18,486 nucleotides of DNA from a virus (lineage: Duplodnaviria > Heunggongvirae > Uroviricota > Caudoviricetes): IMG/VR virus record IMGVR_UViG_2880406838_000002, positions 1-18,486 of that record. One strand, written 5' to 3'. Of the stretch, positions 6,001-9,000 are shown piece by piece; positions within the stretch are counted from its first letter, which is position 1, and each line of letters starts with the position of its first letter. Position numbers: made by a program.

Positions 6001-9000
6001 CTGCAGCACTGCCACCATGGCACTGCGCGTTAAACACGGAGAGGTCAGCACGAAACTGTGTCAGCATGGCTGTAAACAGCGCAGGTTGCTGTACGTGGGT
6101 GGCGGCGCTCATGTCAAACTCACCCTGCATCCAGCAGACGGCCAGCAGAACGTTTTTGGGATTTTTCTGCAATGCCGCTTTTGTGCGGGAAATCAGATCC
6201 TGATATAACGGCTTGCCCACCCCCCAGCGTGCCGAATCCTGACTGGCCCCCGTGGACTCGCTGAATGTCCCCTCCGCGCCCTGGGTAAATGCCGAACCAC
6301 CACGACAGCATGGTACCAGCAGGATCCCCGCGTTATTCGGGATATACGGGAGCAGTTTTTTGGCAATATGTAAACCCTGGCCGACACAGCCGTACTGCCC
6401 TTTGCTCAGGTCAGCCCTCGGATGATTCAGCGTACTCATATCCTGCACATCATGCAGACAGTGGTCAGCCGGAATAATATCGTTATATCTGCAGGCAGCC
6501 CCGCCCGGCGTCACTGTACTGCGGCGCGCCAGCTGTTTAATGCGCGGATCCGGAGCATCGTATGAATCCGGCAGCGGAAGCCCTTCACCGTAAGCCATGG
6601 CATTGGATTGCCCGGCCAGTACGATGACGTAGTACCAATCCGGCTCAGATGAAGGGCCGACCTGTGGCTCTCCTTCAATAGCCACCGCCTGCATCAGTGT
6701 GTACGGCGTAATGGCAACCGGTCCGCCGTATGGCTGCCAGCCCTCTTTCAGTTTGTGTGTCAGCTTTTCCGCAAGGTCTGACGGCGACGCCGCCCTGACA
6801 ACATCGTAATGTTTAATCGACATCGAATTTCTCCCGTGTAGAGGAACAGAGTTAAAAAGCCGGAAGCGGAATCAAATCACAGGATGACCATCTGCCAGTG
6901 GCAGGTCATAAAAAAAAGGCTGCGCAATGCGCAGCCAGAACTCACAAGGAAAATGATAAAAGGAATAACACTAGTGATGTACGCATGGCGCCTCCCGCTA
7001 AGTTCTGCAATGATCAAACAGAACTCGCTACGTGCCCTTAAAACTCGATCATTTAGCCCCTCCAAGGAGGATTCACCATGCGGTTGATTTTTTAATAAAC
7101 AGTAAACAAAAAAGTCAAGAATTATTCATTCTGTTCTTTCATCATCGGCCACAGCAATACCACAATGCCGCAGACCAGAGCGCCATCAGTCAGTACCAAC
7201 ATTATCCTGCTGGTGAAATCCATCATCACCATCACTAAAAGCAGGATCACAACAGCAAGCAGACACAGTTTATAAAACAATGTTCAGAAAACGCATTCAG
7301 CATGCCTAAGGTTCTATTCCTACGAATAGCCAACTTGCAACTTAAAATATTATTTATGCAGCCAATTAAATTCTGGTCCTTACAATATCAACCTGAAGAT
7401 TCTTATCTTGTGCTGATTGATAAATGACAAACCTTTTACTACCTGCATTGAAAGAAGTAGACAAAACCAGACAATTATCATAACGAGCAAGAACATAATA
7501 CCAACCATCATTATAATTAATCATTTCATATTCTTTCTTAAACTGTGGTTTGTAATATCCTGTCAAAAATGAAAAAAGCCAAAAATATGCCACAAAAGCA
7601 ATCATCACAATCTCAAAAAAATGTTTTTTTATAAATGGCTTATCATAGAAGCATGATACCGATAAAAATCGCCCATAAGATCTTATCGAAATTGTAACCG
7701 CCAGCGCAATCGCTGCTGACAGTAGCAAAAGAGGTACCTGAATCTTCTGTCTCAATATAGAAAACTCAATAATTGCCGGCACAAACAATAATTCCACAGC
7801 AAAATAAAGGCGAAATACATTTAGCTCTTGCATAGAATGTTTTCTTTTCACTGCGAAAAAGAATACAACACCAATACCCCAACCGATAAGAAATATAGCA
7901 ATGACGATAACTGCAAAAAATAAACTTCTGGCAACATCATCAACACCTGCACCTACAATCCACCATGGGAAGCCGTAGTAAAAAGAAGTACCCCATCCAT
8001 AGAAATAAGCACTCCCCCATCCAAGGCATCCCATGTAGGCAATAAAAAGTGAAGAACTCCTGAGCAGCGCACCATCCTTCATAACCACCCCAATACAAGA
8101 TGATAACATTGGCTTACAACTCATAACAAAAGCAATTCAATGCCGTCAAGAGGTTACAGGCTAAAAAAACTCTATTACATAGCAGCCAGCATGTTTACCG
8201 TACAAGTACAACTCAGGGCATAAAAAAAACCCACTCGGCAGCGGGTTTATACATTTTTTACAACATACCAAATTTGCATGAAGTATATGGCTTTTAATCC
8301 AGTTTTGCAATATTTTGCTGTAAAAATGCTGCCTTTTGTTTTGAACGTGTTCTCGTCACAAGCAATAAAGCATCACTATCAAGCTGTAGAAAAATGTGCT
8401 TCATTGCAACCCAGCGTTCAGTAAATGTCTCGGACCAGTTTTTTGTTGTCACTCCCACCAATGATGCCAGTGTCTGGTATTCATAGGCCTCACGCCCTGC
8501 AAGTTCGCTCTTCACATCCTGTGCAGCCAGCCAGATTAACGTCTTCAGGCGATCCAGTGTCTTACCTGCAATTTTTCTGTTACTTAACAAATCTTTAAAC
8601 TCGCTCCATGCCCATTGCGTTATGGTGACCTGATGCCCCCATCGAACGCTTTCGCTGTAACACCAAAGCAACCATGCTTTCTGATGTTCATCGAGAGACA
8701 AAACCGCGCGGCGCCATGAAGAGGTTGAGAATTCAACCGGGCTGACCAAAGCAATGGATGAACCTTTTGCGTACGACTGCTTACCGGAAGTCGGCGTATT
8801 ATCCAGCGTAATCATCTTGCCAGTTACCACATCCAGAATGCGCGGCTTCTTTCGTTTGTATGTACCAGTATCAAATTGTGCATGCTCCTGCCAGGCTTCG
8901 AGCTGGCCTTTCGTTGCTCCGTTCAAGTCAGCAGTAGCTGCCATAAGTTGCTCACGAACATACTGTAAATATTGGGTATTCATGCAGTAAATCCTTTCTA

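Follow-up and report, generated by a model that had tools for sequence, protein, structure and literature searches.

PasD1 and PasD2 are pathogenicity-associated sRNAs of the EPEC strain E2348/69 (Pearl Mizrahi et al. 2021, PMC8550237; Zhu, Shabalina and Storz 2026, preprint). According to PMC8550237, PasD2 is a prophage sRNA of 172 nt that was detected by Hfq RIL-seq and Northern blot. The RNA accumulates in uninduced EPEC, is visible on Northern blots and, in RIL-seq, forms chimeras with numerous core and virulence mRNAs in a manner dependent on Hfq; tir, cesF, bfpB and perB are among the partners. The authors also give UGUGAG as the seed and CUCACA as the target motif (Fig. S5 and target motif table), and an RNA-seq level that is nearly independent of hfq (log2FC of 0.55), although they interpreted the Northern blots as showing a dependence on Hfq. 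The published 5′ end, as described there, was taken from RNA-seq coverage and not from mapping of triphosphate ends.

EcOnc13 was found by Hfq-CRAC in the prophage Sp3 of E. coli O157:H7 Sakai, and gave a Northern band of about 187 nt (Tree et al. 2014, PMC4104026). The same study described convergent sRNA pairs at moron sites, formed by an STnc100-type sRNA and one of the anti-sRNAs AgvB and AsxR. STnc100 is a gammaproteobacterial prophage sRNA, and in the published view PasD and STnc100 have a common ancestor and distinct target sets. TciB is named after the operon tciABC of phage P1, a name whose sole basis is the similarity of TciA to TerB. P1 tciB was non-essential in a CRISPRi screen, and toxicity was not reported. 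Searching the literature for DUF3927 or TciB by name gave nothing relevant, and DUF3927 is not mentioned in the PasD and STnc100 papers cited here.

The interval holds tciB and the gene for PasD2

The window analysed here is a stretch of 18,486 nt from a Caudoviricetes record (IMGVR_UViG_2880406838_000002). The original prediction regarded the interval 6824-7365, which lies between a membrane-protein gene and a strong terminator, as apparently non-coding. Our analysis shows that it contains two elements that had already been described, the gene of a DUF3927/TciB protein and that of the Hfq-binding prophage sRNA PasD2 (Table 1). All 542 bases are identical to prophage PP2 of E2348/69 (542/542) and to phage 434, and the interval is 100% identical over 542 bases in at least the 20 best-matching E. 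coli records; 310 records match with at least 99% identity. In view of this identity the listed sequence features are far beyond chance. The observation is thus real yet ordinary, since both elements are known. We assign a probability of about 0.93 to the whole picture, in which tciB and pasD2 lie on the minus strand in a lambdoid moron slot, including the inferred promoter, fold and seed steps.

All sequence features listed in the original prediction are present, but the non-coding status did not hold, since both genes lie within the interval. The end of the membrane-protein ORF at 7366 was verified, and so was the strong minus-strand terminator with its stem of 8 pairs, 7 of them G-C, and its run of eight T residues. 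This is the terminator of PasD2 itself. It had been taken as the only convincing one on the minus strand; a second one is located between Q and the membrane gene. An Rfam scan at gathering thresholds gave no match in the interval, and a relation to STnc100 became visible only in a permissive Rfam scan. No tRNA was found by a tRNA scan, and the interval therefore does not represent tRNA remnants as in Stx phages.

Table 1. Coordinates of the features in and around the interval (positions refer to the window; nt numbers refer to PasD2).
Feature	Position	Strand	Remarks
Holin	4319..4525		
SASA/DUF1737 esterase	4973..6823	-	start at 6823, directly downstream of the PasD2 interval
Esterase-gene leader	6824..6909	-	hairpin at 6909..6884
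PasD2 sRNA	6910..7081	-	172 nt; 172/172 identity to NC_011601 741157..741328
PasD2 intrinsic terminator	6910..6936	-	stem-loop 6936..6918, U8 tail 6917..6910
Seed UGUGAG	6941..6946	-	nt 136-141; U/C-rich single-stranded stretch before the terminator
Closing helix, 3′ arm	6983..6990	-	CGCCAUGC; pairs with nt 1-8 GCAUGGUG, 7081..7074
14-aa frame in PasD2	AUG 6987..6985	-	MRTSLVLFLLSFSL; preceded by GGGAGG
Middle hairpin	7000..7026	-	GAGUUCUG ... CAGAACUU; directly upstream of CGGGAGG
5′ hairpin	7059..7070	-	nt 12-23, CCUCCUUGGAGG, palindromic; from sequence and predicted fold
Plus-strand mini-ORF	7064..7095	+	AAGGAGG 7064..7070, 7 nt, ATG at 7078; MRLIF and stop 7078..7095
Candidate sigma-70 promoter of PasD2	7088..7118	-	-35 TTGACT 7118..7113; A/T-rich -10 region TATTAAAAAA 7097..7088
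tciB	7122..7280	-	52 codons, putative TTG start; small hydrophobic DUF3927-family protein
Spacer	7281..7365	-	85 nt, membrane-protein stop to tciB start; no Shine-Dalgarno
tR′-like terminator	8248..8227	-	between Q and membrane gene
pR′-like site	8310..8282		
Q	8294..9067		
LpxR	9460..10419		

A DUF3927 gene with a putative TTG start

No ORF with a credible start had been seen in the interval, and a hydrophobic mini-ORF of 36 codons (7122..7232) had been noted. This mini-ORF exists but is not complete, as it represents the C-terminal two thirds of the 52-codon ORF tciB. The product of tciB matches Pfam PF13064 (DUF3927) with 53 bits (gathering cut-off 25, E=3.4e-14), residues 7-50 being aligned to profile positions 7-49 of 53, so that the match reaches upstream of the ATG of the shorter reading. 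It also matches phrog_1470 ("TciB-like") with 63 bits, is annotated in RefSeq as DUF3927 family protein (WP_000499454.1), and the phage 434 record names the product of the 52-codon ORF TciB. We found 74 homologues of tciB, and K4, L7 and L13, all upstream of the ATG of the 36-codon reading, are invariant in an alignment of 22 TciB sequences. Comparison with a diverged allele revealed 7, 2 and 9 differences at the three codon positions and a dN/dS of 0.42-0.50. AlphaFold2 predicted an all-helical protein (pLDDT of 79.6) in the form of one long helix and not of a clear two-span hairpin.

The position of the putative TTG start is shared with alleles that start with GTG, and no Shine-Dalgarno sequence precedes it. 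The spacer in front of it is specific to this prophage type and only about 40% identical to diverged copies, in which another gene lies upstream and shares its TGA with the overlapping GTG start of tciB; the TTG start and the 85-nt spacer thus distinguish the present gene from the coupled copies. TciB resembles the P1 protein as a small hydrophobic protein with Pfam and PHROG matches above threshold, and in other prophages tciB is preceded by a TerB-like (TciA-like) gene, which is the order of P1 tciABC. Here, an unrelated membrane protein of 247 aa takes the place of the TerB-like partner.

PasD2 and its relatives in the moron slot

Among the interpretations that had been offered for the interval, an sRNA proved to be correct. 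PasD2, for which we used the coordinates listed in Table S6 of PMC8550237, is identical to 7081..6910, and the same sequence matches PasD1 at 168 of 173 positions. The Northern probe used in PMC8550237 matches 6923..6946 with the one mismatch that the authors state for PasD2. The segment would encode an Hfq-associated, trans-acting, base-pairing sRNA, in line with the Northern and RIL-seq results on the identical sequence in E2348/69. The published synteny of the PasD loci is found as well: Q, LpxR, the gene for the 247-aa membrane protein and tciB lie upstream, the SASA esterase gene follows downstream, and PasA lies beyond the esterase. Seed and terminator are the same, the seed (6946..6941) standing before an intrinsic terminator with a U tract, and there is no sequence difference to PasD2. 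The locus differs from that of E2348/69 in that an IS element interrupts the downstream lysozyme gene.

The suspicion that sRNAs of EHEC prophages may map to this locus was also confirmed, since the EHEC allele is EcOnc13. In Sakai Sp3, EcOnc13 corresponds to the PasD1 allele (168/173 versus the window), and it agrees with PasD2 in locus type and RNA family. Its Hfq CRAC peak (901332..901382) covers the U-rich stretch, the seed and the terminator, and thus the equivalent of the PasD2 seed region. We placed EcOnc13 by the CRAC coordinates and not by its probe, since the probe listed in the supplement of Tree et al. matched neither the Sp3 locus nor the window, which is probably a problem of table parsing. 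The Sp3 locus differs in that the holin follows directly, the esterase between them being absent.

PasD2 aligns to all 206 positions of the Rfam model STnc100 (RF02076, positions 1-206) with 41.4 bits (E=4e-7). The gathering score of this family is 47 bits, and PasD2 is therefore a diverged relative and not a formal STnc100 member. Diverged copies at the same position reach 100-146 bits. STnc100 and PasD2 share the position after tciB or another moron gene, the 5′ end GCAUGGUGAAUCC, the closing helix, the middle hairpin, the CGGGAGGC motif and the terminator. In contrast, identity drops to about 30-38% in the middle part and the seed region, and the seed UGUGAG is replaced by CCCUUUAUUU in STnc100 types. 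The slot between a moron CDS and the esterase ORF downstream of pR′ is also that of the convergent pairs of STnc100-type sRNAs with AgvB or AsxR. No such partner was found in the window, as judged by Rfam at gathering thresholds, whereas AgvB follows right after STnc100 at the related loci L150 and L142. The useful diverged loci came from a search of viral contigs with a diverged tciB allele, while a search based on the tciB alignment gave near-identical copies only. A search of genome contigs (596 Gb) used a 16-base pattern, which was too short, and 2 of the 120 returned stretches were real relatives (L236 and L255).

Like a lambdoid moron insert, the two genes lie between Q with its pR′- and tR′-like sites and the lysis genes, and carry a terminator of their own. 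From established lambdoid biology, we would expect that during lytic growth Q-modified polymerase passes the sRNA terminator and goes on to transcribe the genes for the esterase and lysis. The esterase-gene leader between the terminator and the esterase is 87-91% identical in diverged copies, and its fold is not unusual (z=-0.42).

Predicted fold, seed and targets of PasD2

The minimum free energy of PasD2 is -58 kcal/mol (z=-3.07). The long-range closing helix, which corresponds to inverted repeat I2, is part of the minimum-free-energy fold and is kept in 7 of 7 aligned variants as well as in distant homologues. An equivalent of the 5′ hairpin (CCCCC..GGGG) is present in STnc100-type copies; as an alternative in PasD2, CCUCCU is predicted to pair with GGGAGG at 6996..6991. 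The middle hairpin occurs in PasD, STnc100-type and distant copies with differing sequences, and PasD and STnc100 types are distinguished by two two-sided changes, one from U-A to A-U and one from G-C to A-U. In MAFFT/RNAalifold the middle hairpin of PasD had appeared broken, which was due to a shift of one column relative to the STnc100 types and was overturned by anchoring on CGGGAGGC. Comparing the structure of homologous intervals, as the original prediction had advised, thus revealed a conserved closing helix and compensatory changes in the middle hairpin. The terminator is 89-93% identical in diverged copies, and its changes (U-A to U-G, G-C to G-U) preserve the pairs.

According to this fold, the closed 5′ domain formed by GCAUGGUG and CGCCAUGC would bury the Shine-Dalgarno-like GGGAGG together with the AUG. 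The single-stranded seed just before the terminator would pair with CUCACA in the targets of PasD2, and the terminator hairpin with its U8 tail may supply the Hfq site. The published 28-nt lpxR target site occurs exactly once in the window (9614..9641), and lpxR carries a perfect 10-nt match to the seed at 9622..9631.

A probable promoter of PasD2 and alternative explanations

Judging from the sequence, PasD2 likely has its own promoter. The -35 hexamer starts 3 nt after the tciB stop codon, and the block from -35 to -10 is nearly invariant over 154 loci. The discriminator, which connects the -10 region to the 5′ end at 7081, is variable, and this pattern of conservation resembles that of a promoter. 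A distant homologue without upstream tciB (L236) has a canonical TTGACT-17-TAAAGT at the same position. Moreover, in the read counts for E2348/69 in PMC8550237, PasD2 reaches 11,017 versus 36.7 for tciB, an excess of about 300-fold, and in these libraries it also exceeds the membrane gene about 50-fold. Both the read excess over tciB and the conserved block favour an own promoter, and PasD2 would be made mainly from this putative sigma-70 promoter. For STnc100 copies of Salmonella an RpoD ChIP-exo signal was reported (PMC10794520), and STnc100 copies also follow stx2B and not tciB (PMC12370729), so that the sRNA is independent of any single upstream gene. On the other hand, the candidate promoter was not called by a simple consensus scan of the interval, and its -10 is weak. 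This poor match would agree with PasD2 being derived from a 3′ UTR, cut from the mRNA of the membrane gene and tciB; RNase E, acting at the AU-rich AUUAAAAAAUC, would be one candidate for such a cut. The sRNA has the same direction as tciB and starts 40 nt past its stop codon, an AU-rich single-stranded stretch lies right upstream of its 5′ end, and the authors of PMC8550237 bracket PasD2 with the upstream gene, which is their sign for UTR-derived sRNAs. Considering the read counts and the conservation pattern, we regard such processing as possible but not as the likely origin of PasD2. We give almost no credence to the view that the interval is just a functionless, untranslated 3′ UTR of unusual length behind the membrane-protein gene. 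The lack of a conventional gene with ATG and Shine-Dalgarno and the single strong terminator at the end would fit, but this view is already contradicted by the DUF3927 match far above the Pfam cut-off and by the exact match to an sRNA that binds Hfq and was validated by Northern blot, and block-wise conservation with compensatory changes also speaks against it.

A small toxin/antisense pair had been suggested as well, and in this case the interval would encode a type I toxin-antitoxin-like pair of the hydrophobic peptide (36 or 52 aa) and the neighbouring RNA. The ORF product is indeed short and very hydrophobic, the gene of an abundant sRNA adjoins it, and translation is probably low, considering the non-ATG start without Shine-Dalgarno. 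However, the 36-aa peptide is a truncated reading of DUF3927/TciB, the sRNA is encoded on the strand of the ORF without overlapping it, and it is neither antisense nor extensively complementary to the putative toxin mRNA. The PasD2/tciB duplex was no better than those of dinucleotide shuffles (188 of 300 and 156 of 300 were at least as good) when calculated by RNAduplex, which is crude for long RNAs, and the RIL-seq passages of PMC8550237 on the locus contain no PasD2-tciB chimera. Furthermore, P1 tciB is dispensable, and in other prophages the ORF and a TerB-like gene are translationally coupled through a GTGA overlap, as parts of an operon and not of a toxin-antitoxin pair. We therefore consider a toxin-antitoxin pair very improbable. 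Just as little weight is given to functional mini-ORFs, with PasD2 acting as a dual-function RNA that encodes the 14-aa peptide, or MRLIF being a translated minigene. Both AUGs are preceded by strong Shine-Dalgarno-like sequences, STnc100-type copies keep the Shine-Dalgarno, spacing, AUG, length and stop on the plus strand (MQKCF), and ribosome footprints exist on some STnc100 copies of EDL933 (ribosome coverage values up to 3.2, PMC5331693). But the 14-aa frame is broken by a 1-nt insertion in PasD1 and absent from STnc100 types, and its Shine-Dalgarno and AUG are inside the closing helix. The plus-strand mini-ORF, present just as the original prediction described it, lies opposite PasD2 nt 1-18 and the candidate promoter. 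Its AAGGAGG is the complement of the 5′ hairpin, its conserved parts are exactly the sRNA 5′ end, the hairpin arm and the -10 region, its three inner codons coincide with the discriminator, which varies, and no plus-strand promoter-like site was called in the interval by a consensus scan. We judge it to be a by-product of these PasD2 elements.

Two further annotations were rejected. An ORF of 62 aa (6877..7065), a "putative membrane protein" in phage 434, is spurious, as it has no family match and traverses the sRNA terminator, and a plus-strand RefSeq pseudogene over 6800..7041, antisense to PasD2, was likewise judged spurious.

Linkage of tciB and the sRNA, and significance

We selected 156 prophage loci through tciB, and in 154 of them the 5′ end of the sRNA lies 32-41 nt behind the stop codon of this gene. 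The -35 hexamer of the sRNA abuts or overlaps this stop codon in loci found in the same way, and the mosaic boundary of the tciB-sRNA unit lies inside the 5′ end of tciB. That tciB and the PasD/STnc100 sRNA form one conserved two-gene unit, and are not chance neighbours, appears doubtful to us. If true, the unit might be a lysogenic-conversion cassette, and the sRNA might tune envelope genes including lpxR of the prophage itself, with TciB acting in the membrane.

Beyond correct annotation the significance of the locus is limited. The interval is a textbook gap for automated ORF reading, in which a small-protein gene with a non-ATG start is followed by an sRNA gene. The tight tciB-sRNA linkage and the promoter-like block that starts at the tciB stop codon are modest new points. 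Within the accessory sRNAs of EPEC and EHEC, PasD2 belongs to the more abundant and better-connected ones, and recognising it in a prophage therefore helps to predict the regulatory cargo.

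The Interval Holds a Small-Protein Gene and a Published sRNA

The 542 bp at 6824-7365, between a membrane-protein gene and an esterase gene, had been described as apparently non-coding, with a long 3′ UTR, an sRNA or a small toxin/antisense pair as possible contents. This is real sequence that is already explained: it holds an annotated small-protein gene (DUF3927 family protein WP_000499454.1 in RefSeq, 'TciB' in phage 434), contrary to that description, and a published, experimentally validated prophage sRNA, PasD2, in line with the sRNA option. The best E. coli matches, at least 20 records, are identical over all 542 bases, and 310 records reach at least 99% identity. 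Alignment to the corresponding region of PP2, a prophage of EPEC E2348/69 (740873..741414), also gave 542/542 identical positions. The interval is 100% identical in phage 434 and 98.2% in phage 2B8. Of 5,426 complete genomes, 695 contain it, at 3,724 sites in total (median 6 copies per genome).

Read on the minus strand, the window is the late region of a lambdoid prophage. The location of the interval is a 'moron' slot, the place where Stx phages carry stx (Tree et al. 2014, PMC4104026). The pR′-like promoter and the terminator downstream of it would yield a ~55-nt leader RNA comparable to lambda 6S RNA or StxS; STnc240 (Rfam) matched weakly in the region 8218..8310 (-), with 28 bits versus a gathering score of 55. 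E2348/69 has a second Hfq-dependent sRNA of prophage origin, PasA; because PasA is present here too, the published order pasD2-esterase-pasA is found in the window. The prophage looks like a rearranged remnant devoid of structural genes. An IS3-family element is present in two copies, inverted relative to each other; one of them interrupts the lysozyme gene, and similarity to PP2 jumps there from 4169 to 2860.

Features of the window
Feature	Position	Strand	Remark
Pectinesterase-like gene	1..1284	-	beyond integrase
Integrase, lambda-type	1419..2543	-	directly after truncated lysis region
IS3-family transposase ORFs	2903..4116		
IS3-family copy	3719..3835	-	ALIL frameshift pseudoknot, 121.5 bits
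P21-type holin	4319..4525	-	after esterase
PasA	4739..4823	+	85/85 identical; between esterase and holin, convergent with both
DUF1737/SASA/DUF6645 esterase	4973..6823	-	after interval
PasD2	7081..6910	-	172 nt
tciB	7122..7280	-	52 codons
Membrane-protein ORF	7366..8124	-	phrog_1521; no Pfam match
tR′-like terminator	8248..8227	-	downstream of pR′-like site
pR′-like site TTGCAA-17-TATACT	8310..8282	-	overlaps Q end
Antiterminator Q	8294..9067	-	Pfam Phage_antiter_Q
LpxR	9460..10419	+	coding gene, divergent
IS3-family copy	12704..12820	+	ALIL frameshift pseudoknot, 121.5 bits
OspG-type kinase domain ORF	13978..14868	+	NleH-like type III effector, same prophage region

tciB Is a DUF3927 Gene with a Mosaic 5′ End

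The 36-codon minus-strand ORF of the original prediction (7122..7232) exists and forms the 3′ part of tciB, which starts with TTG one codon after an in-frame TGA. By the Pfam cut-off of 25 bits, the protein encoded by the 52 codons belongs to DUF3927 (53 bits; phrog_1470, 63 bits), and the Pfam match spans residues 7-50, thus including ten residues upstream of the ATG chosen before. E. coli and E. albertii yielded 74 homologues in a database search; K4, L7, L13, V18, D21, F22, T23, R25, I26, I39, L42, and W44 are invariant in the alignment. Differences between two tciB alleles are distributed 7/2/9 over the codon positions (codons 12-48), with dN/dS of 0.42-0.50, which argues that the reading frame is under protein-level constraint. 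The AlphaFold2 model is all-helical, with one continuous helix (pLDDT 79.6). TciB is named after tciABC, an operon of phage P1; P1 tciB was non-essential in a CRISPRi screen. In the Sakai RefSeq record tciB is not annotated at prophage Sp3 (901027..901185), though the DNA is 159/159 identical.

The N-terminus of TciB aligns in two versions, MFYKLCLL... and MTVKLRL.... The latter occurs in diverged prophage DNA and has a GTG start overlapping the TGA of a different upstream gene (GTGA), probably the TerB-like gene noted in the literature. In the alignment this GTG shares its column with the putative TTG start of the window, which lacks a Shine-Dalgarno sequence and lies behind an 85-nt spacer. 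The 5′ coding region holds a recombination junction (7246..7280, corresponding to ~2501..2535 in the diverged copies L083-L162). Similarity to these copies sets in at this junction, and upstream of it neighbouring gene, spacer, and start codon all differ.

The sRNA Is PasD2

By identity, the sRNA of the window is PasD2: the alignment is 172/172 identical to the published RNA (NC_011601 741157..741328 (+), 172 nt; Table S6, Pearl Mizrahi et al. 2021, PMC8550237) and 168/173 to the related allele PasD1. The Northern probe from the same table, CATGCGCAGCCAGAACTCACAAGG, fits 6923..6946 with a single mismatch, the one its authors state for PasD2. The predicted terminator is present as an 8-pair stem (6936..6918) with a T8 tail (6917..6910). 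PasD1 and PasD2 were described as prophage sRNAs with Q and LpxR as conserved neighbours, structurally related to STnc100 (Zhu, Shabalina & Storz, 2026 preprint); DUF3927 has 0 occurrences in that preprint. In a permissive Rfam scan the full STnc100 model (RF02076) matched 6907..7111 (-) with 41.4 bits (E=4e-7) and did not reach the gathering score of 47 bits, making PasD2 a diverged relative of STnc100.

Other prophages carry STnc100-type copies at this position, with scores of 100-146 bits; a convergent AgvB accompanies two of these copies. This anti-sRNA (96.5 bits) directly follows the STnc100-type sRNA in L150 1541..1795 and L142 2619..2874, where the sRNA has a different terminator, the switch point lying just after the closing helix CACCAUGC. 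EcOnc13, the EHEC homologue cited for PasD, is the PasD1 allele (Sakai Sp3 901226..901398), with a Northern size of ~187 nt and an Hfq-CRAC peak (901332..901382) that takes in the seed together with the U-rich stretch and the first arm of the terminator. ECs_0817, a 132-aa ORF annotated in Sakai (901266..901664), runs antisense across PasD1/EcOnc13 and is probably a spurious annotation; in RefSeq records of the window's allele, a pseudogene annotated on the plus strand (6800..7041) is antisense to PasD2.

The remaining coding signals are very unlikely to be functional. On the plus strand AAGGAGG (7064..7070) is present as claimed, with an ATG 7 nt further on that opens MRLIF* (7078..7095). This mini-ORF owes its signals to PasD2 on the opposite strand: its Shine-Dalgarno sequence complements the hairpin arm CCUCCUU, its ATG complements CAU (nt 2-4), and its stop codon complements UUA of the candidate -10 region, which is why the length is kept in STnc100 types (MQKCF). 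A consensus scan of the interval found no promoter-like plus-strand site upstream of this mini-ORF. A 14-codon minus-strand ORF after GGGAGG is frameshifted in PasD1, and its Shine-Dalgarno sequence and AUG are buried in the predicted closing helix. The toxin/antisense idea is not supported: the sRNA lies on the tciB strand without overlapping the gene, and its predicted pairing with tciB mRNA is no better than that of shuffled sRNAs.

PasD2 Probably Has Its Own Promoter

The sRNA starts 32-41 nt past the tciB stop in 154 of 156 prophage loci, all selected through tciB. Against about 80%-diverged prophage copies, identity is 82-83% for tciB from codon 12, 80% for the 40 nt from the tciB stop to the sRNA 5′ end, 79-83% for the sRNA 5′ end, about 30-35% for its middle part, about 37-38% for the seed region, 89-93% for the terminator, and 87-91% for the esterase leader. 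Within the 40-nt block, CTTGA(C/T)TTTTTTGTTT(A/G)CTGTTTATTAAAAA hardly varies among 154 loci and the 8 nt preceding the sRNA 5′ end are variable, a pattern expected of -35 and -10 elements followed by a discriminator. The candidate -35, TTGACT (7118..7113), lies 3 nt past the tciB stop, and TTGAT of the other allele includes its tciB stop codon, TGA. A distant homologue from Superficieibacter shows TTGACT-17-TAAAGT, equally far from GCAUGG.

Among the normalised RNA-seq counts given for E2348/69, pasD2 has 11,017, tciB (E2348C_0687) 36.7, the membrane gene 226, and the esterase 102 (PMC8550237), and RpoD ChIP-exo signal was reported at Salmonella STnc100 copies (PMC10794520). We consider it probable (roughly 0.65) that PasD2 is transcribed from its own promoter. 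Generation by processing is less likely; it would agree with the weak -10 match of the candidate promoter, a site missed by the consensus scan, and with the original authors' drawing of PasD2 as UTR-type (PMC8550237). Only the spacing of tciB and sRNA, the candidate -35 of the sRNA at the tciB stop, the mosaic junction inside the tciB 5′ end, and the absence of DUF3927 from the PasD preprint are mildly new.

Fold, Seed and a Possible Target in the Same Prophage

PasD2 has a predicted fold of -58 kcal/mol (z=-3.07), and 1 of 200 shuffles was as good. In this fold nt 1-8, GCAUGGUG, form a long-range helix with CGCCAUGC at 6990..6983 (inverted repeat I2); every aligned variant retains the helix, and distant homologues do so in part. 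CCUCCU (nt 12-17) has two alternative partners, the local GGAGG or GGGAGG at 6996..6991. Comparison of homologous intervals, as suggested in the original prediction, showed that PasD, STnc100-type, and distant copies all retain the middle hairpin (7026..7000) while differing in its sequence, and at two positions both sides have changed. Another hairpin, AUGACCUGCC...GGCAGAUGGUCAU (6884..6909 (-)), directly follows the PasD2 U tract in the esterase leader. PasD2 would consist of a closed 5′ domain, a U/C-rich single strand with the seed, and a terminator hairpin with U8. A U/C-rich strand with a terminator hairpin and U tail is the usual Hfq-binding module.

The published seed UGUGAG, located at 6946..6941, is complementary to the CUCACA motif of RIL-seq targets, for example gltI, coaE, yhdW, spr, cesF, and perB, and the interaction table lists tir, uspA, bfpB, and aceE as chimera partners (PMC8550237). 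One target site given there lies in the lpxR homologue E2348C_0684. An exact copy of this site occurs once only in the window, inside lpxR (9614..9641 (+)), and contains ACUCACAAGG (9622..9631), complementary to PasD2 CCUUGUGAGU. Judging from this 10-nt perfect match to the seed region, PasD2 may regulate a gene in the prophage that encodes it.
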